A program made the translations under genes and the position numbers. From positions 1-53,233 of IMG/VR virus record IMGVR_UViG_3300030060_002588: DNA of 53,233 nt; one strand, 5' to 3'. Under the pieces are notes generated by a model. That model saw only the letters and a list, made by a program, of their open reading frames with translations, was not told the DNA's origin and made no database searches. Within the stretch, counting starts at the first letter, position 1. Each line of letters begins with the position of its first letter. The DNA is from a virus (lineage: Duplodnaviria; Caudoviricetes). This document shows, piece by piece, positions 22,063 to 53,233 of this stretch.

Positions 22063-22063
22063 T

Positions 22064-22117
22064 TTATTTATCCTCCTTTTTAGGTTCTAAGTCATCTAAT
22101 GTAATTATGTCATCCAT
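22064..22117 (-). CDS. 17-aa acidic micro-ORF
   Basis: MDDIITLDDLEPKKEDK; TAATG-coupled to the upstream gene and fills the gap. Confidence 0.35.
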   Translation of the reverse strand: MDDIITLDDLEPKKEDK

Positions 22118-22586: not shown

Positions 22587-22587
22587 A

Positions 22588-22806
22588 TTATCTCCTTACT
22601 ATTAATTCACCATCAAACATTTCAATAATTCTTTGTGCGTTTTCATCTCTCCAAAATTTACAACCCCTTTCAACAACCTCTTTAGGTATTTGTTTAGGGA
22701 GTTCCCACCACATGCACACTTCCGTTGCATTTTCTCCACCCTTCTTGTAGAGAGCACAATATCTGCAATTATTCAGATTTAATTTCTTTTGGTCTTTCTG
22801 CGGCAT
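22588..22806 (-). CDS. Small Cys-containing hypothetical protein
   Basis: CRYC...C...C pattern; start position uncertain. Confidence 0.55.
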   Translation of the reverse strand: MPQKDQKKLNLNNCRYCALYKKGGENATEVCMWWELPKQIPKEVVERGCKFWRDENAQRIIEMFDGELIVRR

Positions 22807-23494
22807 CTATCATATCATTTGTTAAACCTTGAAATGCAATGCCTGTTACTTGTTGAACTTTAGCAGAACCTTTATCTTCTAAATCTAATATATCAGACAG
22901 TTTAAATAATGCTTTAAGTTTAGTGTCATCTTTCTCAGCAGTCTGAGCTACTATCTTAATATTTTCAAGCACCATTCTTTCATCTATGTCTAATTCTTGT
23001 AATATAGGTTTTAACTCTTCTTTCACAGCAGTTTTTATCCTTTCTGTTTTAATTAAATTAACAGCTTTCATTCTAGCATAACGTTTATTATTTGTAGGAA
23101 ATGCTTTTACATATGCATCTTCAGGAGATAATCCTTGAGATATATAAGTAACAAACAATTCTTCATTAGCAGTCATGCTTTTTCTATTAACAACAATTTC
23201 TTCAGGCGTACGATTACCACCAAAAGAATATATATTAGTTCTTTTGTCTGTATCCATTATTGTTGATTTTAAATTTATAAAAGTACCTGTGCAAGTACCT
23301 ACATACCCACGTTCACCATTATGTCTAAGCATATTACCTTTTCTAAGTATTTGAATAATGCAATCATCATCTGCTATTACCCAATCTCCTATATTAGCTT
23401 TACGCCAGTCCTTTAATGGTTTTATGTTAGAAGGGACTTCTTCTATAGTGTCGTAAACAGCATGCTTCATTTTATTTACTTTATAATAACGCAC
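22769..23494 (-). CDS. terS: Putative terminase small subunit with an extra N-terminal domain
   Basis: NEELFVTYISQGLSPEDAYVKAF...AVNLIKTERIKTAV HTH plus KLKALFKL helix, upstream of terL; GTG start. Confidence 0.65.
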   Translation of the reverse strand: MRYYKVNKMKHAVYDTIEEVPSNIKPLKDWRKANIGDWVIADDDCIIQILRKGNMLRHNGERGYVGTCTGTFINLKSTIMDTDKRTNIYSFGGNRTPEEIVVNRKSMTANEELFVTYISQGLSPEDAYVKAFPTNNKRYARMKAVNLIKTERIKTAVKEELKPILQELDIDERMVLENIKIVAQTAEKDDTKLKALFKLSDILDLEDKGSAKVQQVTGIAFQGLTNDMIDAAERPKEIKSE

Positions 23495-35112: not shown

Positions 35113-38100
35113 TTAATCTGTAATCTCATCTATATAATCATACATAAATAAGAATGAATTTTGACCTGTATTTCTTAATAGGTCTACTAGTCTTCGACTA
35201 GGTCTTCCTGTAGAAGGGTCTGTAAATCCTGGAACTATTGGTATTTTTGGATGTCCTTGAAATGCTGTTCTGGCTATATCAAAAGCCTTCTTTTCAGTAT
35301 ATTTAGAAAAAGGTAATATTTCAGGTCTACCATATTTTAATGGACCCATCATAGACATTAGTCTTTCAGCTTTTTGTGCAGCTATTTTTTCATTTTCAAG
35401 AGCTGTTGCAAAAATTATTCCTGCCATTCCGTCTATAGTTAAAGTCCAACCTGCTCCCATCCAAGGTATTCTATAAACCCATTTATTTATAGCTTTTTCC
35501 CATTCTTCTTCATCTTCTGGAGGTTCATAACCTCTACCCCACCAAGTTCTAAGGCCTAAAGCTAAAGGCAATGTATACCAAGATAAATAATCAGAATGCA
35601 TAGCACTTTTTAAACTACCAGTTTGTCTAAAATCTGAAGCAAGTCGCATTAATTTTCTTGATATTGAAAGAGGATTTGTAAAAGCAAAGTCCATAAATAA
35701 TTGCATAGGTAATGAAAATCTTACCATAGAAACTGCAGAAGCCATTTCTGGATTAGTTACTCTTTGTCCTTGGCCTACTTTTAATCCAGCTAAAACTATT
35801 TTTAAAAACGCTCTAAAATTAGCAGTGGTTTTTCCAGACTGTTCGTCTAATTTAAAATCTTTTGGAATTTTTCTTATACTTCTTTCAGTATCACGAATCA
35901 TGGATTTATCTGAAAACATTCTTTGAATAGACCAGTATTTAAATTTAGCCCAAGGTTTAGCAGGACCATATTGATATTCTGGTAAATCTGAAGTAGACAT
36001 TCCAAAGTTAGTTTCAAAAGAATATGCTATACCTATTTGTAAAGCTTTTGCTATATCTTCCCCTTCTGTAAATTCTGACCAATGAATATCATTTCTTAAT
36101 TCTCCATTTTTCCAAGCTTGGTCAACTCCTGTTATAAATGAAATACTTCTTAAGGCCTGCTCTGTATTACTCATTGTTAAATTAAGGCTTCTAACTATAC
36201 TACCAAGACCTCCTACACCAGCAGCGTATCCTCGATTTAAAAAAGCTTTAAAAGAACTTGCATTTACTAAAGGTTTAATTACATATTTTTTTTCTATAGC
36301 AAATTGTATTAACTTTCTAGCAGCTTGCAATTTCATATCAAGTCTAACATCTCTTAAACTAGATTGTATTACATCTAAATTTCTTACATATATATCTTCT
36401 TTTTTAAGCCATGATTTAGAGTTAGATAAAATTTGCACTATTTTTTCTTCATATCTTTTAGCTGCTTTATCCATGCTAGCAGGATTTTTTTTAGTATATT
36501 TATCTTGAGTAGTTGCAACAAATACAGCCATTTCAAATAATAATTGCTCACTAACTTGACTTTCTAACTGAGCTTCAGTTATACCATTTACCATTGCATC
36601 ACTAAAAAAATCTGAAAAATTTGTTACACCTGATAAGTTTATTAGTTTTTGTATTCCTTCTTGTTTTTGAAAATATAAGTTTATTGCATCAAAAGTTTTT
36701 TTAAGACCTGCTTTAAATACAGTATTTGCTAATCCTGAAACATTAGTTATAGCAGAACTAGCTTTATTTAATGATAAACCAGACCATTGAGTTTGCAGTA
36801 TTCTTGATTTTTTCATTTGAGTATGAGGGTCTACATTTGCTCTATATAAAGTACCACTAAAACGTTTTGGAAATAATCTTTCTAATTGTTGCATTATTAT
36901 ATATGCAGGGTTCCAGCTTCTTATAAAATTTGAAAATGTAGTATAGCTTTCATAATCACCAAACATACCGCTTTCTTTAACAGAAGAATAAGTAGTTCTA
37001 TGATTATTAATACCAGCTTTAATTAATGCCATTACTTCTTTTTTACTTTTTAAAAATCTTTTTGACTCAGGTTTTTGTTGGTCTTTTTTAATTAAAATAA
37101 GTCCATCTAATAATGTAGACGCTAAATGATTTCTTTCAATTGCTGTCATTTGAGCTGTTAAAACATCAAGAAATACAGAAATACCTCTTTGACTATTTCT
37201 TAAATCATACGCATTACTAATTCTTTTAAAATGTTTATTGTCTTTTGCTAAATGCATTAAAGTATTTGTTTGAGAATCTACGTGATAATTAGATAAATTG
37301 TTAAAAGTAGTTTGAGCACTTTCTAATTTAGAATTTAAAATTTTAATTTTATCCTTAATAATAGCAATTTCTTCAACTGTATATTTTTCAGTATTTTCTG
37401 CAGCTAATGACAATTTAGATATATCTCTTTCTAATTCATTCATAAGCTTAGAAACCATTTCTCTTAAAACATTAGAATCATATCTTGTAGGATAATAATT
37501 CTTTCTAAATTCAGGCTCATCAGGATAATACGAACCACCATTAGCTAAAACCATTCCATCTGAAACTGTATTTGCAAAGTTTTCTTGTATAATTTCTACT
37601 AATTCTTTTTGGTCATCTGTTAAATGTTCTAATAAATCAACATAAGGTATTGTTTTTATCTCACCATTTGCTTGTTCTACATCTTTATATAAAAGAGTGT
37701 AGTTATCTTTAACCATCTGGCTAGGGTAATCTAATTCTGTAGTATCAAAAAAGAATATTTTCTTTATAGCCATTTCATTAAAACTTTTTCTTGTACTAGG
37801 GTCCATAATATCTTTAGCAAATACTCCATCAAATAAACTAACAAATTTATCTAAAATACCTTGTGTTACATCAGACATTTCTCCTGTAGTATAGTTAAAA
37901 ACAGTATCTAGCAATGGCCTAGCACTTTTAGTTAAATTAACAAACTTTTCTTTTTGCTTATCATTTAATTTTAAATAAAAATTAGCTTTAGGTTCTTTTT
38001 TAACATAATCTTTAAATCTTACTGGCTTTTGAAAACTGTACATAATATCTCCAGGTACTCCCTCTGTCCTACTTTCATATCTCATAGGTCTTTGTCTTCC

Positions 38101-39006
38101 TGGATTATCAGGGTCTTCTTCTAGTCTCATACTATATTCAGTATTAATCATAAACTCATTTTTATCGTTTAAAAATACCCAACCTTTCATATAAGCACCA
38201 AAAAGCTCATACATTTTTATTTCATTATCTACAGGTATTTCACCCTTTTTAACTTTTGTAGTTTTTTTAATAACTATATCTTTTAATTCTTCTGTTATTT
38301 GTTCAAATGATTTATCAAATCCTTTTACTTTATATTTTTTTTCATTTCCTGTAAGAAGATTAGGATATTGCATAAACTTTGACACTCTGTTAGCTATTCT
38401 TGATGCATGTTCTCTAGTACCTTTAGTCATTGCAAACCAAGCTCCAGTAGGGTCAGAAAAAGCAAGATTTTTAGGAGTTGTTAATGTGCCTTGAAAACTA
38501 CCAATTTTAACCCTAGTACGACCAGAAGATGTTTTTTGATTTATAATATCAGATGCTTTATTTATAAACTGAGTTAATGATGCTTCTGGATATTTTGCTA
38601 ATTCTTCAAAAGTTATAGCATTTATAGTTTCTGTTTCTTTTCCAAGTTTTGTTTTTCCTAAATATACATCTTGTGGTTTTCTAGTTAAAATATATTCATG
38701 CATCATAGGTACTATTTGTGGTTCTTGTCTAAGAATTGACATAAAGATTTGAGCAAGTCGTTCTCTTTCTTGTTTTGTACCATATGCTTTTATCCATGAT
38801 ACTTTTAAATCTTTTTCTGGAATTAATGTATGTACATCATAACCTTGTTTTAATAGTTCTTCAGACCATTCATCACTTCTTTGTTGCCATCCTGGAAAAT
38901 ATTTAGTTAAAATATTGTTATAAACCTGACCTGATATAATATCATTATTAATAATAGCACTAACGTTTTCTTTAGTTTGATTGCACTTGTTACTAGCCAT
39001 TAACAA
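35113..39006 (-). CDS. Large putative internal virion/ejection protein (about 1295 aa)
   Basis: Helical with hydrophobic C-terminal segments; likely start at 39000 by TAATG coupling to the giant gene. Confidence 0.6.
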   Translation of the reverse strand: MLMASNKCNQTKENVSAIINNDIISGQVYNNILTKYFPGWQQRSDEWSEELLKQGYDVHTLIPEKDLKVSWIKAYGTKQERERLAQIFMSILRQEPQIVPMMHEYILTRKPQDVYLGKTKLGKETETINAITFEELAKYPEASLTQFINKASDIINQKTSSGRTRVKIGSFQGTLTTPKNLAFSDPTGAWFAMTKGTREHASRIANRVSKFMQYPNLLTGNEKKYKVKGFDKSFEQITEELKDIVIKKTTKVKKGEIPVDNEIKMYELFGAYMKGWVFLNDKNEFMINTEYSMRLEEDPDNPGRQRPMRYESRTEGVPGDIMYSFQKPVRFKDYVKKEPKANFYLKLNDKQKEKFVNLTKSARPLLDTVFNYTTGEMSDVTQGILDKFVSLFDGVFAKDIMDPSTRKSFNEMAIKKIFFFDTTELDYPSQMVKDNYTLLYKDVEQANGEIKTIPYVDLLEHLTDDQKELVEIIQENFANTVSDGMVLANGGSYYPDEPEFRKNYYPTRYDSNVLREMVSKLMNELERDISKLSLAAENTEKYTVEEIAIIKDKIKILNSKLESAQTTFNNLSNYHVDSQTNTLMHLAKDNKHFKRISNAYDLRNSQRGISVFLDVLTAQMTAIERNHLASTLLDGLILIKKDQQKPESKRFLKSKKEVMALIKAGINNHRTTYSSVKESGMFGDYESYTTFSNFIRSWNPAYIIMQQLERLFPKRFSGTLYRANVDPHTQMKKSRILQTQWSGLSLNKASSAITNVSGLANTVFKAGLKKTFDAINLYFQKQEGIQKLINLSGVTNFSDFFSDAMVNGITEAQLESQVSEQLLFEMAVFVATTQDKYTKKNPASMDKAAKRYEEKIVQILSNSKSWLKKEDIYVRNLDVIQSSLRDVRLDMKLQAARKLIQFAIEKKYVIKPLVNASSFKAFLNRGYAAGVGGLGSIVRSLNLTMSNTEQALRSISFITGVDQAWKNGELRNDIHWSEFTEGEDIAKALQIGIAYSFETNFGMSTSDLPEYQYGPAKPWAKFKYWSIQRMFSDKSMIRDTERSIRKIPKDFKLDEQSGKTTANFRAFLKIVLAGLKVGQGQRVTNPEMASAVSMVRFSLPMQLFMDFAFTNPLSISRKLMRLASDFRQTGSLKSAMHSDYLSWYTLPLALGLRTWWGRGYEPPEDEEEWEKAINKWVYRIPWMGAGWTLTIDGMAGIIFATALENEKIAAQKAERLMSMMGPLKYGRPEILPFSKYTEKKAFDIARTAFQGHPKIPIVPGFTDPSTGRPSRRLVDLLRNTGQNSFLFMYDYIDEITD

Positions 39007-42000
39007 TCCTCCTTAATAATACGTTCTAATATTCTATATTTTTCTTGTTTAAGTTTTTTATCATTATTGTTTAAATCTCTTACTTGCTCATTATATAGCT
39101 TAAAGTAATTTTTAACAATTTCAGGGTCTAGCATACTAGCTTGGTCTTTTCTATCACTTACTGGAGGCATACTAAAACCCCATCTTTCTTTGCTTATTTG
39201 TCCTTCTAGAAAATAATAAGTTGCAGTTACTTGAGCTGTATTAGATAGTCCATCAAACATAGCATCGTATTGCTCCTTCCATTCTATCATTTTATCATTT
39301 CTATCTACAGATTGTGGTCCCTTAGCATTATATTCGTCACGTCTTTTTTTCCATTCATTAGACATTTTAATAGCATAATTTAAACCTTTTTGTCTTTCTT
39401 CTTGCTTTCTTTCAACAGATAGTAAATTGTCTTTGTCATATGCTTTGTTTAAATAAAACTCTTTTAGTCTATCTAATTCATTCATACTAGATACATGAGA
39501 GTTCATATGAACCATGTCGTTTACTATAAATGGTGATGCATCATATCCCATTAAATTATATTTTGCTACAGATGTCATTTCTTCTAAAATTTCACTTGGT
39601 GCAATTGCTATCATTTCTATAGGTGCTAGTTCAATACTTCCAATATTTCTAGTTTTTAATTTACTTATTATTTTAAGATTATCTGATAAGTATTTTTGTC
39701 TATTCATAATGTAAGATTTATATATACCACTCTTTTTTAATACATCTCTAAATGCAAATTGAGAACCAAATTCATAACCATTTCTAATTCTGTTAGCCTG
39801 TATATGCAATCTTACTAATGGCTGAATAACTTCATCATAGTCTTTACCTGTTTGAGATATATCAGAACCATCTTCATATGTAAATATTCTTGTCCATATA
39901 AAACTATCATTCTCATATCCCCATTGACCAAGTAATCCATATTTAGAATTATCTACAGATGCTTGCAACATTAATCTTAAAAATTCATCTACTGTTCCTG
40001 TCCATCCTTGTTTATTTTTATATGGTACATTTAAATATACTTTATCTTGTCTACCTTTTAATATTATATTTCTTCCCATTATTTCTTTAGATTCAAAGCT
40101 TTCATAAAATTTATTTATTATTCCATATACTGAGCTAGCATTAGCTATTTCACCTATAGCCATCTCTCCAGATATTAATCTATTAATTAAGCCAGCTCTT
40201 CCTTTTCTACTTAATAAAAAGTATTTTAATTTTTCGTTAACAAAATCATCTAGGTTTAAATCTCTTATTTCTAAATTATTAAAATGATTTACATAATCTA
40301 ATGTCATTTGGTCTGTAGGTAAAAATTCTATCTCTACGTGGTCACCATCAGCATCACCTTCTATTCTGTTTTTAATATCTTCTATGTTCATCATTACAAC
40401 AGCTTCTCTTTCATGCAAGAATTTTACTCTACCCATATATGTACCACCTTCATTAGCTACAGGAGACCTAGTTACCATGCCATAAACTTCATTATTTAAA
40501 AGCCATTGATTAATTTCATCGTTAGTTATTTCACTATTTGGAGCTGTTATGTTATTTGCTTCTTTATATTTGTTAAAGATATAACTAGCTTTATGTCTTG
40601 ATATACTAATTTCTTTTGGTTTTAATGTATTTGTTGCATCCATAGAGACATTGTATACACTTCCGTTTTTACCGCTTAAAGTTAAAGCAGGTTCTATTAA
40701 ATGTCCTTGTACAAGTTGGTCTATAAGCTTACCAGTTTGCTGATGAAACCCTGCACCTAATCTAGCTAATTCTAATATATGTGGTATAAAACCTATCTCA
40801 TCTACACCATGTATATCCTCTAATTTTTTAGCAATTTTTTCTGCTGCAGTTTTACCACCTTTAGTATCAGATGCAAGTCTAATAACTTCTCTAATTTTTT
40901 TCTCTACAATAGGTAAGTAATTATCTTTAAAATTGTTTATTATAACAGGATTGTCTACAAAATTGTATACTTGTTGAATATGTTTTGCATGAGGAGTGCT
41001 ACCTTCTTCAAATTTTATAAACCCAACAGAAACTCCAGGTATTACAAGTTTACCATTATTTAATAACTTACCATCTTTATCAAATAGCATTCCGTTATTT
41101 TCAGAACCAATTTTAATTTCATCACTTGTTGCTAAAAAGTCTAAATAATTTCTTTTTCCTGCTTTATAATCAGGATGTGCTTCTCCTAATACTAAATTAC
41201 CAGAATCATTAACTCTAAATAATACTTCTCTTTTTTTGTTTAATATTTTTAATCCAGGCTCAACTCTTTGATGTTGATGTTTTAATGCATAAGTATTTAT
41301 ACCATCCATCATATATTGTACAGTTTTTGCTACATTAGTACCTTTTCTTAAGCCATGCCCTTTATTTAATTTTACATTAAATGTATCTTTAGATGTCATT
41401 GTTTCTCCGTCACCTATATATTGCTTAGACTTGCCAGATACTTTTTGCATTGGAGAAAATGGCTCTCTATCTTTATATTGAAATAATACTTGTGAAGGAT
41501 TAAAATAATATGCTATTAAATTATCCATATTTTCATTTACTGTTACAGGTGTAAATGGTATTTTTAATCGCTTGTATACATTTGGTCCACCTTTTTTATC
41601 CATTAAATATTTAGGCCAAACTTCTTTCATTCCTTCATGTACTGCTATTTCTGCAGCTCTATTTGTTGCATTGTTTTTATAATCACTAGTTGCAAAAAGT
41701 TTCATAAGTTCTCTGGCTTGAGATGAAGTCATACGTTCTTCAGAAACTTCTTTACTTAAATAATCTGTAACACTTTTATTTGTTTTAGCTATGTTTTTAT
41801 GTTCTTGTTTTATATCTACAATAGCAAGCTTAGGAGAGTTTCCTCTAGAAAATGCAATAACTTTACCATGATTTTTAATTAAATAATTATCTAATGACTC
41901 TAACTCTTGTTGATTTAAAAAGTTATACAGTACGTTATTATTTATCATCATACCATTAGCAAAGATAGTTCTCTTTCTCATGTTCTTTTTAGAAAACCAA

Positions 42001-45000
42001 TTAAATAGTCCTTTAACAGTTGGTAAAAAATCTGCAAGTGTTTTCTTTTGAAAACCTGGATTGCTTCTAGATTTATCATTGTTAGCTAAAAACTTTCTTT
42101 CAGGTCCCATTAGCTCAATAGAGAAAGAACCGTCTGTATTAATTTGTACTTCATAATTTTTAATACCTGACATTTCTTTGTTGTTAGTTCTTTCCATGCT
42201 TCTTATTCTATTATAAAACTTAATCATACCTTCTTTTTTCCATTGAGGTAATGCTCCACGATATTTTATAATTTTTAAAGCTTTTGGCAACCACTTATCA
42301 AATGTATTAAATGCATCTCTTTTAGATAAAACAATCATTCTATTTAAATCTTGTTGTAATAATGTTACTCCAAAGTCTTTTATAAAAGTTAGATTATGAG
42401 AAGGTAATACTTTTTCATTTGTATTTACTAATCCCATTCTTCTAGATATGTCAAACATTGTTTCTTCGTTTTCTTCTAATTGCTCAAACATTTCATCGTA
42501 AATACTATTTTGACCTATTGGTGTTGAATTGTCACCAACTGGTTTCTTAATATTAAACTTACCTCTATACCATGTATAAAAAGTTTCTTTTACTTCAGCT
42601 CTTAATGAAGAGTCCATAATATTAAAGAAATCTTCTTTTCTAGTTTGTTTTTTAAGTGGTTTAGATATATCCCACATTCTATTAAAAAAGTCTTTTAACC
42701 AAGCTTTATCTCTAGACAATTCATCAGACATAGTAAGCTCTTGTTCTTTTTCTACATAAGCCATTAACTGAAATCTATCTGTTGGTCTAAAATCAAATTG
42801 CTCTTTTAATATAGCAGCATCAACTTTTTCTAAAGTAAATCTTCTATTTGAATTAGCAAGTAGTCTTGCAACTTCTTTAAAGCTAGTGTCTGGGTTTAAT
42901 GACCTTGCATATATATTAGTAGTCCAAGAGTTTCCAAATAGTTTAGATTTAAGCCAATCAAAAAATCTTTGTATTGCACGCATAAATACATTGTCTCTTT
43001 TTTTATGTATGTTTTCAGCAACATCTGAAATAGAATGTGCAATCAATTCATCTGATATTTCTTTATCTTTGGAATCAAATTTGTTTAAAAGCTTTACAAT
43101 GTCTTTAGGAAAAAGGTTATATCCGTCAGCTTCATGCACTAACTTATTATACTCATCAATAAAACCAGGTCTTTTCTCATCATTTTGATATGTTTCTACA
43201 ATATTATTTAATTTTTCTTGACCTAATACACTTTCTGATAATTCTTCTAATATATTATTATATAATGCTGGATTCATTTCTCTTATCTCTGTAATAAAAG
43301 GATGCATAAACTCATGGAAACCTGCGTCTGGTGTAGCTAATGCTGTATTAATAGTAACTTTTTTATCTACTTTATCATAATAAGCAGCTATATTGCCTTT
43401 ATAATTAGTTATATCATCAGATATATTGTCTGTAAATTCTAGTTCAATAGCACCTTCAAATTTATCAAACAACATTTTAGCTATCTTTTTAGTTCTTTCT
43501 TGTATTCTTTCTGGCTGTACTTCTGCTTGTCCAGATGCTATTAACATTTGCTTTTTAGATATTTTTTGAAATGCAATATCTTCTAATTCTTTTGTTTCAA
43601 CCTTAGTAACAATAGGTGTGTCTTGTATAAAAAGCCTATCTTGTGTTCTTGTTATTGCTGTATAAAACCATCTAGCTTGCAATTCTTTATCTGCAATTCC
43701 TGTGTCTCTATTTCTCATATATGCTAAATCATCTGCAACAACAAATACATTAGGATATTCCATCCCTTGTACTTTATGCCCTGTAACAGCATATCCATAT
43801 GTAAATGTAGAAATCTGCTGTCTTAGCTTAGGTCTTTTTGATGTAGGGTCTAAGTATTGCCTAAAACCTGCATCGCCTCCTACGACTATAGATTGTGGTA
43901 TTGCTGCTCTGCCTATAGTAGTAGGGAACAGTAAGCCTAATCGACCTTCATTATCTTCAAAAATATGTGCATCTACAGTTGTTGTAATAGGTGTTTTTGT
44001 TTGTGCGTCATAGGATGTTTGCAATCTAACTTTATGTGAAGATATTAGCTTAGGTTCTTTTAATATAAATTGGTCTCCATTGCTATAATCATCATTATTA
44101 GACAATGCAATAAGTCTTTCATTTTTATTAAGTGGGTTAATAGATTTACGTTCATATCTAGCATCTCTTGCAAGCCTGTTCCAACTTTCTCTAGTTTTAT
44201 TTGTATAAGTTACAGCAACTGTATTGTCTTCACCTGATAAAGCGTCAAGCCTTACCATTGTTTCAAACTCTCTTCTAAAATCAACAGGCTTAGATATTTT
44301 AACATTGTCTACATCTTCAACAGGCATTAATGCACCACTATAGCCTTTTTTATTTAAAACAGATTTCATGTTATCATTTCTAATTGCAGTAGCTAGTGTT
44401 AATACACCTCCAGCTTTTTGCCTTTGAACATCTGTCATTTGATAGTCAGTATTCTCCATTATCCTAGGGTCATCACCAACAGGTTTTAATTGAAATCCAT
44501 CACCTATATATATAACTCTAGAACCGTATGTATCTATAATTTTATTTAAATCATCTCTTAGTTTTATATCTATCATAGATGCTTCATCTACAACAATCAA
44601 TGTCTTTTTATCTGGAGTAAAGCCTGTATCTGCAAATTGTTTTGCAGTTTTTAATTCAAATCTTCCTGTTATTTTATTAGGAGGTCCGTATAAAAATTTA
44701 TGCAAAGTACTAAATTCTGCTATGTTTTTAATAGGTTGATTCTTATCTTCAATTCTTCTTACAGCTGTATTAGTAAAAGAACTTAAAACTATTTTATTAT
44801 AACCTTTATCGTTTGCTTGTCTTGCTATATTTTCTACAATAGTTGTTTTACCTGTACCAGCATAACCTGAAAAAACAAAGATATTATCATCTGTAGTATT
44901 AGGGTCGTCTGGGTTTTCTATTAAAACTTCTTTATCTATTTTAGTTAATGCTTCTGATTGTTGCTTTGTAGGTACTAATTTATCACTTCTGTTTTTTATT

Positions 45001-48000
45001 ATATTGCTAGTTTTTACCCTTGTCTTGTCTACTACTTCTTCATCTTTAAGCTCATCTTTTTTAACTCCTAATTTGTCAAGCCTTTCTTCAACTGTGTCGT
45101 CTGCTTTAATTCCAGCTTCTTCACTTCTTTTACTAAAGTCTTCTAATTTTATTTCCGACCTTTTTTGTAATATTTCATCTTCAGCTTTTCTAATATCGCT
45201 TAATTCATTTTGTATTTCAGGAGTCCCTTCTTCTCTATCTTTTTTTATAAGACTAATTTTATATTCTTCTAAGTCCGCAAGTATTTCATCTGCTTGCTCT
45301 ACAGTTAAAATTTCTTCTGATTCAGTTATTGCAATATCTTTATCATAAGTTTCTTCATCTATTTTAACCTCAGCTCTTTTGTCATCAGGTTTTTCTGGTT
45401 TATCTTCAGGTATATATTGTTTAACAGTTATTGGTTTTTCTGGAGCTTTTTCCCACACATAACCTTCTTCAAATAATTCAGGTTTGCCTTCAGGATGTAA
45501 TATGTTTTCAACATAATTTAATTGTTGTCCTTCAGGTGTTGATGATAAAACATGTTTAGCTGGTTCGTATTTAACTTTAATATATCCATCTACTTCTTCT
45601 GTCTTTGAAGGTTCAGGAACTGTAGTAGGTTTAATAATTGTTTCTTCAGTTTCTTGAGCATCAAACTCTGCTTGTACTTCATCTGTAAATTCATCTGAAT
45701 CTGTTATTTCTGGAGTAGATGCATCAAAAGCTTCTATATCACGTTCTAGTTCAGGGATATTTATTTCAGTATCATCTGTATTAACTTCTGAATTATATGG
45801 TCTGCTTAAACTTTCTTCTATAATAGCAAGATAATCTTCAACACCTTCTTGTCCAAAAAAAGACTCTTGAAAGTTTTGTTTAAATACATCTATTGGTACC
45901 TGTATTTCTTCATCTTGCAATAACTCTGGATACTCTTTAATATTTTCTACAATAACTTCAGGGTTAATAACTAAACCATCTTCTTCCATTTTTTCTAATG
46001 TACTAGAGTCTTGCGTATTTAAATTATCTACAGATACAGTATGATTTGTATCTTCATTTTTATAACCTTCCATAAAACCTTTTACTAGTATTTTAGCATC
46101 TTTATATGAAAAGACTTTTTTATTTTCTTCTACCCAGTTATATCCATCTTCATAAGGTGTTGTTGAATTTTGCTTGTCAAGTTCTTCTAAATTACCAATA
46201 GATGAGATAACATCTTCATTTGATTTATCTATTTCTTCAATACCATATTTATCTACAATTTTATTTATAGAATCAATATTTTTATCTATCTTTGTTTTTT
46301 CTCTATTAGCTTCATACTTTTGTTTTTTATTGTCAGTTATAACTTTTATAACTTCATCATTTTTATTAACAACTACAACTCTCCAAACAGGAAAGCCAGC
46401 TTCGTTGTCATATTGTTCAAGCTTAGTTTCTGCTCCTACTAGCCATTTATTAGCCCATGCTACCCTTTTTTCGCCTTCTTCTTTGTTGTAGACATTAAAG
46501 TCCATTGCAGCTTCATTAGCTGATTGAAAGTCAGGATATTCTGTTTGTATATCTTCAAGGGTTCTAGGGTCTTTGCTGTTTAATTCTACTTCATTTATTA
46601 CTTCATTGTTATTTTCATCTAAGCTAATTACTTTGTTGTATAGTTTGTATGCACCATCTTCTGTTTCTTTTACTACTACTCCACCGTTATCTAAATTGTT
46701 TAGTTGATTAACAACAGATAAATTACCTAACCTATTAGCAATACTAGAATTGTCTTGATTCATTCCAGCGATTTGGAACATTTTAGAACCAAGAGCACCT
46801 CCTGCTAAAGGCTCAAAGACTGTACCTCTCCAACTAAATCTACTAGAAAAATCTCCTCTAGGGTCCCATTTATATTCTCTTTGAAATGCAGGACCATAAA
46901 CATCTATTAAGTTTTGATTAACTGATGTAAGAACTTCTTCAAAACCTTCTGACATCATTTCGCTATTATTTTGCACAACAAATGTATTAAAAGTTCTAGC
47001 AGGTAATGTTGATAAAAAAGAATCGTTAGGGTTTATATCTATACCTTTACCTATATTCCTTATTTTATTAATTACTGGAATGTCTTTAATTTTATTTGCA
47101 AACTTATTACTAAATCTGTTGTAAAATTTTTCTCTTATAATATTAGGCGTTATTGCTTCTCTAAATCCTTTTGGAAATAAACTTATTTGCTCAATAAGAC
47201 TTGCAGAAAGTCCATGTGCTACAGCTGAATATTCAGCAGCTATTACAGCATCATAAGGATTTAAAGGTCTTGTAAATATTCTACCATCATCAGTTCGTAT
47301 AACATTTAATCGTAAATAATCTTTAACCATTTCCTCTGCAATTTGAAAATCTGGTTTAAAGTTTTCAGAGCCTCTTTCTTCTTTAATCTTTTTTATTTCT
47401 TTTGTATACTCAGCATTTTTAATTCTTATTAATTCAGATAATTCTTCAGGTTTAAGTTCCATTGGTTGTACTAAATTAGACACTGCATTAGCTAAATAAC
47501 TTGCATGCTCTAAATTATATCCAGCAACACCACTAAATAGAGCTTGTCCTAATAGTGCACCTTTTCTAGACGTTTCTGTTATAACAGCAGCATCTAAAGG
47601 GTCTGGCCCAAAACTTAAAGCTGAATATGCAGTTCCTAGCAATGCTCCTAAACTACCACCAGCTATTTTCCCTAAATATTGTTTACTTAAAATTTGACCA
47701 ACACTAATTGATGTTTGTTGTGCAAAGTTATTAATATAAGTCATTAGCTCACCACTATCGTAAAGCTCTTTCATAGTTTTGCCATTTATACTTTCTAACT
47801 TTGCTTGTATAAGTGGATTATCTTTATAAAACTGTTCTCCATACTCAATACCTTTTTTGATGTATTCAGATGCAATATAAGAATCTGCTTCATAACCTGA
47901 TTTTAAAAATTCTTTCCACATAACATCTGCTTCTTCTTCATTAAAGACACTATCAGTAAAGAAACCACTATCAAGAACTACATTTTTAAAACTTTCTTCT

Positions 48001-48632
48001 GCTTCTAATTCTGTTAAGCCAGCAAAATCTAAACTTAAAAGCGTACTAGCAGGTTCGTAAAATAGTTTAGACTGCAAAAAATTCATTTTAGTATTTTGAA
48101 AAATTCCTCCTCCAAAACCTAGTTCTTCATATTGTTTGTTAAGTTCTTCTTGAGGTGATGCTTTAATATTAGCTGATAGTATAGTCTGAATATCGTCTGG
48201 TCTAGTTACGTTTAAAAAATTAAGAATTTGACTGTCACTCATGTTAGGAAAATTATGCCTGTTGTCTTCTACATAATTTTGTAATGTGTATTGTGGATTT
48301 AATTCTGAAGAACCGTCTTCGTTAACTTTAAATGCATCTTTATTATCATACAGTTCTGTCCCTGCTTGTTCAACTGTAAATTTTGGAATAATGTCTGTTG
48401 TAAGATTTTTATGCTGCTCATACAACTTAGTTAACTCATCTAAAGCATTATTAAGTTGTTGTTTGTTAACTATGTTAGTATTATTTAATGCACTATTAGG
48501 CTTTAAATCTCCAGAATCTATAGCAGTTTTATTAGTTTTAATACTATCTTGATAGTTAGCTTTATGAAGTTTAAGCTCTTCTTCTTTTTCTTCTATAAGC
48601 TTACTAAGATTGTATAAATCTTGGTAACTCAT
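39000..48632 (-). CDS. 3210-aa polyvalent virion protein: SF1B helicase, zincin-like HExxH domain and double-psi beta-barrel RNA polymerase
   Basis: GYAGTGKT, VVDEASM, GDGFQLKPV, TGHKVQG, YTAITR; HEFMH; GDG, K..K, RSP, GDADGD, IGEIAN, ASVDNSKYG. Confidence 0.8.
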   Translation of the reverse strand: MSYQDLYNLSKLIEEKEEELKLHKANYQDSIKTNKTAIDSGDLKPNSALNNTNIVNKQQLNNALDELTKLYEQHKNLTTDIIPKFTVEQAGTELYDNKDAFKVNEDGSSELNPQYTLQNYVEDNRHNFPNMSDSQILNFLNVTRPDDIQTILSANIKASPQEELNKQYEELGFGGGIFQNTKMNFLQSKLFYEPASTLLSLDFAGLTELEAEESFKNVVLDSGFFTDSVFNEEEADVMWKEFLKSGYEADSYIASEYIKKGIEYGEQFYKDNPLIQAKLESINGKTMKELYDSGELMTYINNFAQQTSISVGQILSKQYLGKIAGGSLGALLGTAYSALSFGPDPLDAAVITETSRKGALLGQALFSGVAGYNLEHASYLANAVSNLVQPMELKPEELSELIRIKNAEYTKEIKKIKEERGSENFKPDFQIAEEMVKDYLRLNVIRTDDGRIFTRPLNPYDAVIAAEYSAVAHGLSASLIEQISLFPKGFREAITPNIIREKFYNRFSNKFANKIKDIPVINKIRNIGKGIDINPNDSFLSTLPARTFNTFVVQNNSEMMSEGFEEVLTSVNQNLIDVYGPAFQREYKWDPRGDFSSRFSWRGTVFEPLAGGALGSKMFQIAGMNQDNSSIANRLGNLSVVNQLNNLDNGGVVVKETEDGAYKLYNKVISLDENNNEVINEVELNSKDPRTLEDIQTEYPDFQSANEAAMDFNVYNKEEGEKRVAWANKWLVGAETKLEQYDNEAGFPVWRVVVVNKNDEVIKVITDNKKQKYEANREKTKIDKNIDSINKIVDKYGIEEIDKSNEDVISSIGNLEELDKQNSTTPYEDGYNWVEENKKVFSYKDAKILVKGFMEGYKNEDTNHTVSVDNLNTQDSSTLEKMEEDGLVINPEVIVENIKEYPELLQDEEIQVPIDVFKQNFQESFFGQEGVEDYLAIIEESLSRPYNSEVNTDDTEINIPELERDIEAFDASTPEITDSDEFTDEVQAEFDAQETEETIIKPTTVPEPSKTEEVDGYIKVKYEPAKHVLSSTPEGQQLNYVENILHPEGKPELFEEGYVWEKAPEKPITVKQYIPEDKPEKPDDKRAEVKIDEETYDKDIAITESEEILTVEQADEILADLEEYKISLIKKDREEGTPEIQNELSDIRKAEDEILQKRSEIKLEDFSKRSEEAGIKADDTVEERLDKLGVKKDELKDEEVVDKTRVKTSNIIKNRSDKLVPTKQQSEALTKIDKEVLIENPDDPNTTDDNIFVFSGYAGTGKTTIVENIARQANDKGYNKIVLSSFTNTAVRRIEDKNQPIKNIAEFSTLHKFLYGPPNKITGRFELKTAKQFADTGFTPDKKTLIVVDEASMIDIKLRDDLNKIIDTYGSRVIYIGDGFQLKPVGDDPRIMENTDYQMTDVQRQKAGGVLTLATAIRNDNMKSVLNKKGYSGALMPVEDVDNVKISKPVDFRREFETMVRLDALSGEDNTVAVTYTNKTRESWNRLARDARYERKSINPLNKNERLIALSNNDDYSNGDQFILKEPKLISSHKVRLQTSYDAQTKTPITTTVDAHIFEDNEGRLGLLFPTTIGRAAIPQSIVVGGDAGFRQYLDPTSKRPKLRQQISTFTYGYAVTGHKVQGMEYPNVFVVADDLAYMRNRDTGIADKELQARWFYTAITRTQDRLFIQDTPIVTKVETKELEDIAFQKISKKQMLIASGQAEVQPERIQERTKKIAKMLFDKFEGAIELEFTDNISDDITNYKGNIAAYYDKVDKKVTINTALATPDAGFHEFMHPFITEIREMNPALYNNILEELSESVLGQEKLNNIVETYQNDEKRPGFIDEYNKLVHEADGYNLFPKDIVKLLNKFDSKDKEISDELIAHSISDVAENIHKKRDNVFMRAIQRFFDWLKSKLFGNSWTTNIYARSLNPDTSFKEVARLLANSNRRFTLEKVDAAILKEQFDFRPTDRFQLMAYVEKEQELTMSDELSRDKAWLKDFFNRMWDISKPLKKQTRKEDFFNIMDSSLRAEVKETFYTWYRGKFNIKKPVGDNSTPIGQNSIYDEMFEQLEENEETMFDISRRMGLVNTNEKVLPSHNLTFIKDFGVTLLQQDLNRMIVLSKRDAFNTFDKWLPKALKIIKYRGALPQWKKEGMIKFYNRIRSMERTNNKEMSGIKNYEVQINTDGSFSIELMGPERKFLANNDKSRSNPGFQKKTLADFLPTVKGLFNWFSKKNMRKRTIFANGMMINNNVLYNFLNQQELESLDNYLIKNHGKVIAFSRGNSPKLAIVDIKQEHKNIAKTNKSVTDYLSKEVSEERMTSSQARELMKLFATSDYKNNATNRAAEIAVHEGMKEVWPKYLMDKKGGPNVYKRLKIPFTPVTVNENMDNLIAYYFNPSQVLFQYKDREPFSPMQKVSGKSKQYIGDGETMTSKDTFNVKLNKGHGLRKGTNVAKTVQYMMDGINTYALKHQHQRVEPGLKILNKKREVLFRVNDSGNLVLGEAHPDYKAGKRNYLDFLATSDEIKIGSENNGMLFDKDGKLLNNGKLVIPGVSVGFIKFEEGSTPHAKHIQQVYNFVDNPVIINNFKDNYLPIVEKKIREVIRLASDTKGGKTAAEKIAKKLEDIHGVDEIGFIPHILELARLGAGFHQQTGKLIDQLVQGHLIEPALTLSGKNGSVYNVSMDATNTLKPKEISISRHKASYIFNKYKEANNITAPNSEITNDEINQWLLNNEVYGMVTRSPVANEGGTYMGRVKFLHEREAVVMMNIEDIKNRIEGDADGDHVEIEFLPTDQMTLDYVNHFNNLEIRDLNLDDFVNEKLKYFLLSRKGRAGLINRLISGEMAIGEIANASSVYGIINKFYESFESKEIMGRNIILKGRQDKVYLNVPYKNKQGWTGTVDEFLRLMLQASVDNSKYGLLGQWGYENDSFIWTRIFTYEDGSDISQTGKDYDEVIQPLVRLHIQANRIRNGYEFGSQFAFRDVLKKSGIYKSYIMNRQKYLSDNLKIISKLKTRNIGSIELAPIEMIAIAPSEILEEMTSVAKYNLMGYDASPFIVNDMVHMNSHVSSMNELDRLKEFYLNKAYDKDNLLSVERKQEERQKGLNYAIKMSNEWKKRRDEYNAKGPQSVDRNDKMIEWKEQYDAMFDGLSNTAQVTATYYFLEGQISKERWGFSMPPVSDRKDQASMLDPEIVKNYFKLYNEQVRDLNNNDKKLKQEKYRILERIIKEDC

Positions 48633-48642: not shown

Positions 48643-50205
48643 TTATTCGTTTAAATTATCCAATGAACTGAGAACACTTCCAGGATATTGATTATTAATC
48701 CTACTCCACATTATTAATATATGATATAAGTATTGGTCAGATAGTGAAGTTCCTATATCTTTATCTTCTGTCTTTTCATTAAGGTCTAATCCTAAATCTT
48801 GATAAAATTTAGAAAACTCACTGCCATTTCCAATTCTAGGCATATTTGTTTCACTATCTTTTGATTCAGCAAAGTAATTATAAGTATTCCCATCTGCACC
48901 AACATATGATTTTGCAACACCAATAAACTTATCAAATATTGCTTGAACACCTAAATTTTGTAAATTTTTATCATTATATATTGCATAATTATTTTCACCT
49001 GTTGGTTCACCATCTTCGCCTATTATTTCTTTAAATCCTATAGACTCTCTAAATTCTTTTATAAAATTTATTTTATCTTGCTCTCCACCTATAAAAGGCA
49101 TATCGCTTCCTTTAAATAAACCTTCTAAACTAGCCATAGATTCACTAGTTGAACCATCTACAATGCTTAATATAACTTGTTCTAATTCATTTCTTAGCAT
49201 TGCTGCAGAAGTTGGGTCATCATATAGTTTTTGACCAGATTTTAAATTAGTAAACTTAGCTATTTTATATTTGTCTAAAAACTCTTTATCATCTTTATTT
49301 GCATATTCAATCTTAAATGCAGAACTGCCTATAGCTTTAGAATTTATATTTGCTACTACTTCTTGTATCATTTCAAAACTTGAATTAATATTTAATTTAG
49401 GTATTACTTCAGCAGGTGCTGTGCCTGAATACTGAGGAGCAAATCCTACCTTACCATCAACAGTCCATCTTTCTGGCGATAAAAAGGCTCTACCTAAATA
49501 GTTATTTTTATCACTTAAAATTACATTGCCATCTTTATCTGTTTGAGCTATTCTTTGCATGTTTTTATCTAATGCAAATACTGTTGGGTCATCTTTATCC
49601 ATAACATATAAGGGTTGTTTAAAGATATGTGCGTTATCAGGGTCATTAACATATGCATCAAAATCTTCATAATCTAAAACACCTACTTGACCATAGTCAG
49701 TTGATACATTTGTTAAATGGTCGTTTAATGACATAATACCTGTTTCCATAAGATTTAAACTACTATTAATATCATTTATAACTTTTGATGCTTGAGTAAA
49801 TTGTAATTGTTTATCTGCTAAACTACTAACATCGTCCATATAAAAAGTTAAATCATCATTTAATGTTAATCCATGTTCTTTAAATATATCTTCGTATGCT
49901 TGTGTTCTATATTTTTCAGTAACTTTGTCAGCATATAAATCTCTAGTTACATCATGAGCTTCTAAATAATCCATAGATTGTTTTAATCTTGTTTCTGAGT
50001 CTTCTAGTAGCTCTGTATTTCTTTTTTCTTTTATAGCTAAATCTGTTTGCAGTTTTTTATTCTCAGTATCAACCCAATTATTGTAATCATTAAGAGCCAT
50101 TGTATCTTTAACTTTTTGTTGCATTTCAAATGTATTAAATACATGATGTCCAAGGCTATCTAAAGTGTTTAATATCATTTGATATTTTTTTAATTTATCA
50201 CTCAT
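48643..50205 (-). CDS. Putative internal virion/ejection protein
   Basis: 520-aa acidic helical ORF in the large-gene cluster. Confidence 0.55.
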   Translation of the reverse strand: MSDKLKKYQMILNTLDSLGHHVFNTFEMQQKVKDTMALNDYNNWVDTENKKLQTDLAIKEKRNTELLEDSETRLKQSMDYLEAHDVTRDLYADKVTEKYRTQAYEDIFKEHGLTLNDDLTFYMDDVSSLADKQLQFTQASKVINDINSSLNLMETGIMSLNDHLTNVSTDYGQVGVLDYEDFDAYVNDPDNAHIFKQPLYVMDKDDPTVFALDKNMQRIAQTDKDGNVILSDKNNYLGRAFLSPERWTVDGKVGFAPQYSGTAPAEVIPKLNINSSFEMIQEVVANINSKAIGSSAFKIEYANKDDKEFLDKYKIAKFTNLKSGQKLYDDPTSAAMLRNELEQVILSIVDGSTSESMASLEGLFKGSDMPFIGGEQDKINFIKEFRESIGFKEIIGEDGEPTGENNYAIYNDKNLQNLGVQAIFDKFIGVAKSYVGADGNTYNYFAESKDSETNMPRIGNGSEFSKFYQDLGLDLNEKTEDKDIGTSLSDQYLYHILIMWSRINNQYPGSVLSSLDNLNE

Positions 50206-51560
50206 TATTCTCGCCCTTCCATTATATTTGCTTCAATTCTTTCAGCACCTTCTCTTACATTTGCTTGTGCAGTTTCTAAAAATTGTTCTATTTGTTGGAA
50301 TCCTGGAGCAAATTGTTCTTGATAAAATCCTCCAGTAGGAGCCCCTACCAATGTATCAGTTCTCATTACATTAGCTCTAGATTCATAATCACCCCAATCT
50401 CCTAATCCACCAAATTCAGCACCACGATTTACAGAACTTTGAACTAGTCTTGAGCCTTGTTCTCTATGAGCATCTGCAATTTGTCTAGCCATACCTAATA
50501 AATCACCTACTCTTTGATTACTTTCTTTTAATATATTTGCAACATTACCACCATACCTTAACTCTGCAGCTTTAAAATCTTTTTCTATACTTTCTTCTTC
50601 AGCTTCTAAGCCTTCTATTTCAGTATCATATGCTAGCCTAGCTCCTCTTTCCGCTTCTTCTAAATTTTCAAATGCTGCTTGACCTCCTGACCTAGTAGTT
50701 CTAGCTGCTTGTTCTCCTGGAGCACTATATGCAAACCCTGATGCTGCTTGTTCTGCTCTTAATGCTTCTTCTGCAGGTAATACTTCTCCTGACATTTGTT
50801 CTCTTTGAATATTTGTTTTTCTAAGTTGCTCTTCTTTTGCGTCTAAAGCCATTTCTTTAGCACCTTCTATAGTCTCTTGTTCTTCTATTTTAGATTGTTC
50901 GGCTATGTCTAATTCTTCTTTTTGTCTTCTAAGTTCAACAGCTTGGTCTGATGCAATATATCTTTGGTCACTATCTAATCCATACTTTTCACCACCTCCT
51001 GTTAAGCCTATATTTTCAAGTTGTTCTTCTTCTAAACCTGTAGAAAGTTCTGTAGCTTCAGTTAAACCTCTAACTGCTAATGCTTCAAAAGGTTTTTTCA
51101 ATGCAAGGTCTACATACTTGTCATAATATCCACCTTGTTTTCCAAAATCTCTAGCCATGCTCTGCATTTTTTCTACTTGACCTCCACCACCTAACCATGT
51201 TTCTCCAGAGTTTAGTCTACTTTCACTATGCTTCCAAGCGTTTAATTCATCTCTATCAACAGTCCCTAAGTCTCCTATAAATTCACCACCAATATTATAT
51301 TCTCCTGAAAATATTGCAGAATCTTCTGTACCTCTTATACTTTCATCTAAGTATTTAGGATACCTTCCTCCTGGCATACCAGCTGCCATGTATCCAGCGG
51401 AATATTCATCATCAGCAACATTCCATTCGTCAGCACCAGAGCTAGTGTGACCACCACATAAATCTACCTTACCTTTATAATCAAAAGAACTAGAAGAAAC
51501 TTCTATAAGTTTTTGTTTCTTTTCATCCCATTGCATTAAGACTTCTGTATATATTTTCAT
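50205..51560 (-). CDS. Putative internal virion/ejection (pilot-like) protein
   Basis: 451 aa; N-terminal MKIYTEV...DLCGG leader, Gly-rich region, Glu/Ala coiled coil. Confidence 0.55.
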   Translation of the reverse strand: MKIYTEVLMQWDEKKQKLIEVSSSSFDYKGKVDLCGGHTSSGADEWNVADDEYSAGYMAAGMPGGRYPKYLDESIRGTEDSAIFSGEYNIGGEFIGDLGTVDRDELNAWKHSESRLNSGETWLGGGGQVEKMQSMARDFGKQGGYYDKYVDLALKKPFEALAVRGLTEATELSTGLEEEQLENIGLTGGGEKYGLDSDQRYIASDQAVELRRQKEELDIAEQSKIEEQETIEGAKEMALDAKEEQLRKTNIQREQMSGEVLPAEEALRAEQAASGFAYSAPGEQAARTTRSGGQAAFENLEEAERGARLAYDTEIEGLEAEEESIEKDFKAAELRYGGNVANILKESNQRVGDLLGMARQIADAHREQGSRLVQSSVNRGAEFGGLGDWGDYESRANVMRTDTLVGAPTGGFYQEQFAPGFQQIEQFLETAQANVREGAERIEANIMEGRE

Positions 51561-51988: not shown

Positions 51989-53233
51989 TTAATTTACTCT
52001 TACAAAATCTACATCTATTTTATTATAATCTACCATATCATAGCCACTAAAATCTTTTTCAACAGCTTCTTTTGGTACATCTTGAGAAATAACTCCATTA
52101 TAAGTTCCTTCTGTATCCTTGTAATTAAATTGATATATATTAATTCCAGAAGGTGATTTACCTATTTTCTTTATATTTTTCTTAAGCCTTTTATCACTAA
52201 ATATTTTACCTAGTACTGTATTCTTTTTGAATAATTTATCTCCCAATAAACCCAAAGCCATTACAGTCCATCCTGCAGGTCCCATAGATGCAAAAAGACC
52301 TGTATTACCTGCGGTTGCACCTGCTGTTGCTGCTGTAGAAGCAGCTCCAGTAGCGGCTCCTGCCGCAGCTCCTGTGGCGGCTGTACCAGTTGCTGCTGTT
52401 GCTGCAGTTCCTCCAAATAAATTTTTCATGCCACCTTTACCAATATTTTTAAATGCAGTTACTACTTCCTTTCCTCTACTTCCAGCCCAAGCCTCTTTAA
52501 CTCCACCTTTGCCAACGTTTAAAGCAGCTTTTGTAACCTTGCCAGGCATGCTTTCATTCCATTTTTGTTTTAAAAATCCATCTGCTACTACTTCTCCACC
52601 TGTTGTTGGAGCACTAAGTATTTTACCTGAAGGACTTTCATAGTCAGGTAATGGGTTAGCTAAACTGCCAGGTAGCTTGCGTGCTTTTGCTTTAAATCCA
52701 CCAGTAGCAGGGTCATATATTAAATTAGTTTTTCCTGTAGATGTAGACGCTAAATTGTAATCAATTTTACCTAGATTAGGCCCTGATAAATCTGTAGATA
52801 CTACTCCTATTTCTCCACCTAAAGCTACTTTTTTATCTAACACAGTAGCATCTCTGTCAAATTTAAATGTTCTAAATCCTTGGTCTCTTTTCATTTTTTC
52901 GTAAGATTTTTTAGCCTTACTTAATTCTGCAGCTTGTATTAAATCAGATTGCTCAGGTGTAATACCTGCTATATTTATAACTTTATCAGGGTCATAAGTA
53001 TCTGTAACTCCAGTTTGAAAAGGGTCATTATTATCTATTACTTGAGGGTCTCTTGTATAATTCCTAGTCCAAGGAGTTTCTGCTCCAGATGGTACATGTG
53101 TTGTAGAATAAAGTTTTTTATCTGCACCTTCTCCTAATCCTAAATCTTTAGAAACTTTAGAAAATTTATCATTAACAATATTATCAAATACTTTTTGTTC
53201 TCCACTTACACCATATTTCTTTTCAAATATTCT
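51989..53233 (-). CDS. 3' part of the origin-spanning 620-aa protein with a C-terminal intramolecular chaperone (peptidase S74-like) domain
   Basis: Frame is open from the junction to 51989; FSDKRLKKNI...IYQFNYK...GVISQDV...VDYNKI. Confidence 0.85.
   Translation of the reverse strand, partial: RIFEKKYGVSGEQKVFDNIVNDKFSKVSKDLGLGEGADKKLYSTTHVPSGAETPWTRNYTRDPQVIDNNDPFQTGVTDTYDPDKVINIAGITPEQSDLIQAAELSKAKKSYEKMKRDQGFRTFKFDRDATVLDKKVALGGEIGVVSTDLSGPNLGKIDYNLASTSTGKTNLIYDPATGGFKAKARKLPGSLANPLPDYESPSGKILSAPTTGGEVVADGFLKQKWNESMPGKVTKAALNVGKGGVKEAWAGSRGKEVVTAFKNIGKGGMKNLFGGTAATAATGTAATGAAAGAATGAASTAATAGATAGNTGLFASMGPAGWTVMALGLLGDKLFKKNTVLGKIFSDKRLKKNIKKIGKSPSGINIYQFNYKDTEGTYNGVISQDVPKEAVEKDFSGYDMVDYNKIDVDFVRVN
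53135..53233. repeat. Terminal overlap, right copy
   Basis: Matches bases 1-99 except the first base. Confidence 0.97.

Follow-up and report, generated by a model that had tools for sequence, protein, structure and literature searches.

A predicted helicase, a zincin-like domain and a putative two-barrel RNA polymerase in one giant protein of an uncultured ~53-kb marine phage

An RNA polymerase of the crAss type, once injected into a host cell, has to start on a double-stranded genome, yet in vitro the only enzyme studied performs well only if its template is single-stranded or denatured. How such a start is made is the question raised by P0001, the giant gene of a 53,233-nucleotide stretch of DNA from a virus of the Caudoviricetes (IMG/VR record IMGVR_UViG_3300030060_002588, positions 1 to 53,233; this whole stretch is hereafter called the window), whose product carries a predicted helicase, a zincin-like domain and a putative polymerase in a single chain. 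A first-pass annotation of the window had proposed this order of domains together with a series of motifs; all three domain calls held, and every one of the motifs was recovered where it had been placed in the open reading frame (ORF; 39000-48632, 3,210 residues). We read P0001 as a polyvalent protein, a chain of five parts belonging to an uncultured marine podophage of ~53 kb; taken whole, with the mechanism set out below, this explanation has about an even chance of being right.

Predicted domains of the P0001 chain

Residues 1247-1669 can be firmly assigned, from their sequence, as a predicted SF1B helicase of the Dda/RecD type with intact catalytic motifs. The segment exceeded the Pfam cut-offs for AAA_30 (76.5 bits, cut-off 27, E value 2.9e-21), AAA_19 (62.1 bits, cut-off 25.1) and UvrD_C_2 (40.3 bits, cut-off 27.4) and fell just below that for PIF1 (25.6 bits, cut-off 25.9); it also matched PHROG 325, 'Dda-like helicase' (E 1.5e-61), and, when phmmer was run against the PDB, the solved helicase chain 8jx6 over these same residues (E 1.6e-10). 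SF1B motifs I (GxxxxGKT), II (DExx), III (GDxxQLxP), IV, V (TxHKxQG) and VI (YTAxTR) were all present and in order, and motifs I-VI were invariant across nine aligned fused helicases. The helicase of P0001 is the sole member of its Dda/RecD family in the window.

The segment that follows holds the only HExxH motif of P0001, against 0.04 occurrences expected from its composition. When 23 relatives were aligned, H1773, E1774, H1777 and E1862 were the only invariant columns of the segment (23/23), an invariance that argues for retained metal chemistry; E1862 is the glutamate of DELIA, which the first-pass annotation had put forward as a candidate acidic ligand. An AlphaFold model of the domain (predicted local distance difference test score, pLDDT, 72.7) displayed one helix and three strands, then the HExxH helix and, further on, a helix with E1862, the two sites lying in predicted helices at model residues 90-108 and 180-201, respectively; the same layout is described for the zincin-like domains of polyvalent proteins by Iyer et al. 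2017 (PMC5512222). The domain is therefore called zincin-like on the basis of its motif and predicted layout, and not of a significant match to a solved peptidase, since no solved structure was matched significantly; the non-significant PDB matches included minigluzincins (selecase, jannalysin), lethal factor and IrrE. Only three of 305 Foldseek matches in BFVD reached E ≤0.001, namely P0001 itself (100% identity), an unnamed entry (1.9e-6) and a protein of the crAss-like phage cr108_1 (6.9e-4), followed by Tenacibaculum phage Gundel_1 (1.2e-3), structural proteins from phages of Tenacibaculum, Flavobacterium and Cellulophaga, and several entries named 'large polyvalent protein'. The profile of the zincin family also aligned to phi14:2 gp65 around its HEIMH motif (domain E 0.0066).

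The C-terminal ~1,200 residues belonged to no named family by the sequence methods used (Pfam, PHROG, phmmer against the PDB, and a phage collection); neither the whole ORF nor its C-terminal 1,311 residues had a match in that collection when searched as DNA and protein, and no relative came up in a scan of viral contigs. A model of residues 2020-3210 built on 12 relatives (pLDDT 75.5, predicted template modelling score 0.72) had as its top Foldseek match the virion RNA polymerase of phi14:2 (6VR4, chain 6vr4_A; E 2.5e-10, probability 1.00); the template modelling scores were low (0.39 and 0.24), as is expected because the chains are large and multi-domain. The next matches were chains listed as the RNA polymerases P32 gp64 and P74 gp62, which we take to be of the non-virion type of the P23-45 phage group, and then many bacterial beta-prime chains. 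In all 12 relatives, R2722 and P2724 (R-x-P) and, further on, E2758, D2760, D2762, G2763 and D2764 (E-G-D-x-D-G-D) were invariant, as were K2436 and K2451 in an upstream beta-rich stretch that may correspond to the second barrel; residues of these kinds are expected of a two-barrel enzyme. Applied to a set of 22 giant proteins mostly of the gp66 type, described below, the profile of the polymerase family produced marginal matches to the catalytic barrel in five (best 4.7e-6 in this 22-sequence set). Model and invariant residues indicate that the module is a single-chain RNA polymerase of the crAss/QDE-1 kind, two-barrelled and very divergent in sequence.

Misassembly had been named in the first-pass annotation as a way in which the fusion might prove false. 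In sequencing run X1 one contig of 19,670 bases spanned the whole ORF with seven differences and no gaps; as this run may be the source sample, it is not independent evidence when taken alone. Run X2, from another study, supplied error-free pieces across the zincin-polymerase border (42522-42899) and the helicase-zincin border (43349-43627), and ten protein clusters on separate contigs shared the domain order. These three lines rule out misassembly of the fusion, and an artefact of assembly or gene calling is exceedingly improbable. Three short 'skips' in read-run contigs, with sides of 21-23 letters and low depth, were taken as other organisms or repeats, and the lack of cover over parts of the ORF in runs X2 and X4 was given no weight.

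Relatives of P0001 and helicase-polymerase joins in other phages

An exhaustive search returned 183 representative proteins at E ≤0.001, of which the best 150 were surveyed; 37 of these 150, here termed long relatives, matched the polymerase profile with at least 800 residues ahead of the polymerase. An HExxH motif preceded the polymerase in 34 of the 37, the zincin profile was matched by 22, the N-terminal region (residues 1-1000 of P0001) was recognized by profile search in 16, and the helicase was present in eight. Two further carriers came from a later search, bringing the clusters to ten, and the shortest helicase-zincin-polymerase chains of the family measured 2,057-2,200 residues (P0036, P0041). 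Between the end of the helicase and HExxH lay 93-114 residues in the eight carriers measured, so that helicase, zincin and polymerase behave as one block. On a polymerase tree of 54 rows the helicase carriers formed two separate, fully supported clades, so that at least two changes are needed on this tree; like the helicase tree below, it was built by a quick method with midpoint rooting and with support from the Shimodaira-Hasegawa-like approximate likelihood ratio test only. The survey of homologous architectures, a check proposed by the first-pass annotation, thus found the block conserved in ten clusters, and found also that the join is not peculiar to them, since it recurs widely in other phages.

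Other compositions were seen among the helicase-less relatives. Between its zincin and its polymerase (residues 1538-1889), P0010 carries a cpYpsA SLOG domain as well as an AlkB-like 2OG-Fe(II) oxygenase, and P0013 has SAP and GNAT domains at residues 614-650 and 1069-1130. The polymerase module alone, starting with methionine and 1,070-1,260 residues long, occurs in P0015, P0018, P0019, P0022, P0048, P0054 and others; these proteins adjoin giant fused forms on the tree and may be split genes or contig-end fragments. P0161 (1,926 residues) fuses a helicase of the same subfamily (32% identity to P0041) to ~1,200 residues in which polymerase, zincin and HExxH all went undetected. In many proteins of 1,500-1,900 residues on contigs of ~100 kb (P0162-P0279), the fusion is between cpYpsA SLOG or DUF1768/NADAR domains and a PIF1/AAA_30 helicase that is more distant; these constitute a separate, abundant helicase fusion family.

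When helicase and zincin segment were used as the query, 22 further proteins, mostly of 4,000-5,500 residues, were found to share the helicase only. In blastp, twenty of the 22 gave matches to phi14:2 gp66 (down to 3e-30); these twenty carried D-F/Y-D-x-D, the helicase lying after the polymerase in these gp66-type fused giants; among the 22, three also matched gp67 and one gp65, and no polymerase motif was found in P0285 and P0301. A helicase tree of 58 rows contained one clade of 33 rows (support 95), comprising the ten carriers of the P0001 family, P0161 and all 22 giants, P0285 and P0301 included. Four stand-alone helicases from other phages fell just outside this clade, and the free helicases of the crAss phages cr8_1, cr11_1 and cr127_1 fell in the other half of the tree; as stand-alone helicases make up only seven rows, the finding that the clade contains giants only is provisional.

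A join of a different origin was found in the uncultured crAss-like reference phage cr118_1 (MT774379.1, 16381-31221), whose 4,946-residue coding sequence QOR58373.1 contains a match to the P0001 helicase together with a gp66-type polymerase (blastp to gp66 1.9e-41, DFDID) and HExxH. Its helicase grouped with those encoded by free genes in cr8_1, cr11_1 and cr127_1, indicating a separate fusion event. QOR58373.1 is annotated as 'DNA helicase' and, in RefSeq, as 'exonuclease V'; such annotations of giant genes hide the polymerase. Both the window and cr118_1 have a fused helicase copy only, which fits the relocation of a single function. The 4,126-residue P0306 bears a Dda-like helicase, N4-type virion polymerase domains (N4_RNAP_helical, 5.7e-36) and a GNAT domain; the N4-type fold is unrelated to the two-barrel fold, and the fused partner is of the same kind. 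P0307 (4,092 residues) likewise has a Dda-like helicase joined to an N4-type virion RNA polymerase.

Template opening and competing explanations

We propose that P0001 would travel in the virion and be delivered by ejection to the host cell, where its polymerase would transcribe the first phage genes; the helicase would be loaded on the entering genome and supply the single-stranded template that such polymerases need, and the zincin-like domain would either cut the chain into working parts or hold and regulate the polymerase. Packaging and ejection are most likely by analogy, the gene order matching g067-g066-g065 of phi14:2, whose products are annotated from virion mass spectrometry in the genome record, and crAss001 providing a precedent; polymerase-associated proteins of crAss001 are reported from its virions, and their passage through the tail is proposed to take place in a partly unfolded state. 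Action of the helicase on the entering genome is probable in view of the template preference of phi14:2 gp66, which accepts single-stranded and denatured DNA as templates and shows hardly any activity on native DNA; the QDE-1 polymerase likewise needs a helicase and RPA. Cleavage of the chain by the zincin domain is plausible, such processing having been proposed for polyvalent proteins (PMC5512222) and for gp65. For the explanation as a whole, that of a packaged and injected helicase-zincin-polymerase chain which opens template for early transcription, we see the scales as level.

Several results weigh against it. The helicase is absent from 29 of the 37 long relatives, which means that polymerases of the family function with no helicase fused to them, and in cr8_1, cr11_1 and cr127_1, whose helicase is free, the polymerases start without it; the free gene lies beside that for uracil-DNA glycosylase in these three genomes, and in two also beside DNA polymerase, a setting that points to a role in replication. 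As for the polymerase, phmmer against the PDB gave no match to gp66, the family profile reached only E 0.47 or worse against gp66, and hhalign of the two families returned E 0.18 (probability 0.3) with a single alignment, in which R-x-P and the aspartate triad were in register. When the zincin model was compared with solved structures in the PDB by Foldseek, none of 69 matches reached E ≤0.001 (best 0.36), and not one zincin family of Pfam gave a match at E ≤0.1. In N4, moreover, the subdomain with HExxH is described as polymerase-binding, in a paper whose text lacks the stem 'proteoly'.

Some of these points suit a different view of the helicase, according to which it is independent cargo, serving early replication or recombination or acting against host defence, and merely shares a chain with the polymerase. 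The variable parts of relatives' chains are filled by unrelated enzymes, as P0010 and P0013 illustrate; a related helicase is a free gene of the replication module in three Crassvirales genomes; P0161 joins the same type of helicase to a protein with no detected polymerase or HExxH; and the fused copy may simply be the only Dda-type helicase of the phage, as no other was seen in the window. Polyvalent proteins have also been proposed (PMC5512222) to jump-start replication as well as transcription. We nevertheless consider independent cargo rather unlikely, because joins of Dda-like helicases with injected polymerases involve two unrelated polymerase folds and at least three arrangements, and because in the P0001 family the helicase always abuts the zincin-polymerase block. 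The first-pass annotation had proposed that the helicase may pull the genome in, and one may picture a motor that translocates on the entering DNA, with transcription secondary. SF1B enzymes do translocate 5' to 3' on single strands, which speaks for such a motor, but to load, a Dda-type enzyme requires a site that is single-stranded, of which none is known at the genome end, and 29 of the 37 long relatives enter cells without a helicase; we regard this role as improbable.

The zincin-like domain, for its part, could be no protease and instead bind the polymerase in a structural or regulatory capacity, the chain then working uncut. Subdomain C1 of N4, which bears HExxH, is part of a C-terminal domain found in tight complex with the polymerase, and the domain of P0001 has no significant match to solved peptidases. 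The invariance of all four metal and catalytic residues across the 23 aligned relatives is, on the other hand, a sign of retained metal chemistry, and in polyvalent proteins it is the zincin-like domains that are predicted to do the processing (PMC5512222); a purely non-proteolytic role therefore appears doubtful.

The phage, its known counterparts and a possible use of the fused helicase

The window, whose composition is ~31% G+C, looks like an essentially whole, circularly permuted genome of ~53 kb: joining its ends yields a 666-codon open stretch on the minus strand (51989-53233 plus 1-717), and the ORF that runs off the high end has tail-fibre-like matches, so that a gene of this type bridges the two ends; the contig of the cluster measures 53,246 bases. 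Positions of the genes and of the parts and motifs of P0001 are collected in Table 1. The 15 best-listed matches of the large terminase were from Roseobacter, Lentibacter, Erwinia, Methylophilales and Vibrio phages (25-28% identity), the nearest relatives among the matches listed being Roseobacter and Lentibacter podophages and not Crassvirales; the capsid protein had a single matching record, which was non-crAss. Neither the terminase (among the 15 best-listed matches) nor the capsid protein thus placed the phage in Crassvirales. The order of the operon (window 14030-23494 versus NC_021806) mirrors that of phi14:2 despite the podophage-like terminase and the non-crAss capsid protein.

In a PHROG scan five of ten window proteins had no family, among them the neighbours of P0001 at 35113-39006, 48643-50205 and 50205-51560; the first of these, P0002, matched nothing beyond a weak blastp alignment to phi14:2 gp65 (E 0.005). 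The N-terminal region of P0001 matched no Pfam or PHROG family; in Atlas it met unnamed viral clusters only, plus a weak LPD22 lead (0.90, 15% of members), and its profile had no match to phi14:2 gp67, to the gp66-type giants or to P0002.

Table 1. Positions in the window of the genes considered and of the predicted parts and motifs of P0001.
Feature	Residues	Position	Strand	Remark
Major capsid protein gene		14030-15580	minus	long structural operon
Portal gene		16560-18836	minus	long structural operon
Large terminase gene		20369-21925	minus	long structural operon
Primase-helicase gene		29466-31220	plus	separate plus-strand module
Downstream gene P0002		35113..39006	minus	1,297 residues; last of operon; position of g065 in phi14:2
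Whole gene P0001		39000..48632	minus	3,210 codons plus stop; second-to-last in structural operon; largest ORF
N-terminal region	1-1000	45633..48632	minus	profile matches to relatives
Charged linker	1001-1229	44946..45632	minus	composition: 60 Asp+Glu and 39 Lys+Arg among 229
Predicted SF1B (Dda/RecD-type) helicase domain	1230-1680	43593..44945	minus	profile envelope 1249-1672
GYAGTGKT	1256-1263	44844-44867	minus	full Walker A
GTGKT	1259-1263	44844-44858	minus	Walker A core
DEASM	1349-1353			helicase motif
GDGFQLKPV	1377-1385			helicase motif
YTNKTR	1476-1481			helicase motif
TGHKVQG	1617-1623			helicase motif
YTAITR	1657-1662			helicase motif
Zincin-like domain	1680-1997	42642..43595	minus	HEFMH and candidate third ligand E1862
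HEFMH	1773-1777	43302-43316	minus	HExxH of zincin-like domain
DELIA	1861-1865	43038-43052	minus	contains E1862
E1862 codon	1862	43047-43049	minus	candidate third metal ligand
Putative two-barrel RNA polymerase module	2020-3210	39003..42575	minus	model fold match, invariant residues
DADGD	2760-2764	40341-40355	minus	predicted polymerase catalytic triad

The closest known counterpart is the g067-g066-g065 block of Cellulophaga phage phi14:2, in which gp66 (6VR4) is the best structural match of the P0001 polymerase and a zincin-like HExxH protein, gp65 (HEIMH at residue 245), accompanies it. In both phages the block ends the structural operon next to the replication module, and the genes run in the order terminase, portal, capsid, tail, giant proteins. 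The two differ in that gp66 has no significant sequence similarity to the P0001 polymerase and reads DFDID where P0001 reads DADGD, with the glycine of cellular polymerases; the zincin of phi14:2 is encoded by the next gene, whereas in P0001 it precedes the polymerase in the same chain; gp65-gp67 lack a helicase; and the genome measures 100 kb against ~53 kb for the window phage. QOR58373.1 of cr118_1 (Suoliviridae) also unites a two-barrel virion polymerase, an upstream HExxH and an SF1B helicase with GYAGTGKT in one chain, although there the helicase follows the polymerase and lies outside the P0001 helicase clade, and the polymerase is of the gp66 sequence type. In comparison with the gp66-type giants, the P0001 polymerase is far more divergent and keeps DxDGD, the order is helicase, zincin, polymerase, forms of 2,057-2,200 residues exist, and the phage has ~53 kb and a Roseobacter/Lentibacter-like terminase.

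Polyvalent proteins, known from phages and conjugative elements (PMC5512222), resemble P0001 in being giant multi-domain chains with a zincin-like hub and variable enzymes, predicted to be delivered on infection; that paper mentions SF2 and UvrD-type helicases, and SF1, RecD and Dda do not appear in its text. Some N4-type polyvalent polymerases carry a Dda-like helicase, as P0306 does, although the N4 polymerase is T7-like and not two-barrel. In gp96 of Thermus phage P23-45 a virion two-barrel polymerase is likewise fused to another virion protein, with the difference that the partner is the tape measure protein; the text of that study (Chaban et al. 2024, PMC10770324) nowhere uses the word helicase.

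The first-pass annotation had known of no characterised protein with this three-part architecture, which stands insofar as no experimental characterisation of it was found in the literature searched; as a claim of novelty it has to be narrowed, with zincin and virion polymerase already together in print and helicase-polymerase joins widespread. A polyprotein of zincin and virion polymerase was reported for crAss-like phages (Yutin 2018, as cited in a later paper), N4-type virion polymerases fused to zincin-like domains were described by Iyer et al. 2017 (PMC5512222), and an 'SF1 helicase' is listed, without location, among conserved crAss genes (Yutin 2021). No paper discussing a helicase joined to a virion polymerase was found in the full-text literature, a scope to which Yutin 2018, figures and supplements did not belong. 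As far as our searches reach, the design of P0001 is hence a conserved join, recurrent in many other phages, of which the zincin-polymerase part was known and the helicase part was not found in the literature.

The window would extend the crAss-type polymerase fold to a lineage of ~53-kb marine phages without a sequence link to Crassvirales. A broader proposal, which we put forward tentatively, is that Dda-type helicases are partners dedicated to opening the template for injected RNA polymerases, fused to them at least three times independently (in the two-barrel family of P0001, in gp66-type crAss polymerases and in T7-like N4-type polymerases); repeated fusion would follow because all these polymerases would need single-stranded DNA. 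Were this so, chains as short as those of P0036 and P0041 would be self-sufficient machines, transcribing double-stranded DNA without host factors, and these members of the P0001 family are small enough to express. A helicase held in the same chain, and recurring across unrelated injected polymerases, would offer a concrete and testable answer to how such a polymerase starts on the double-stranded genome that it enters with.

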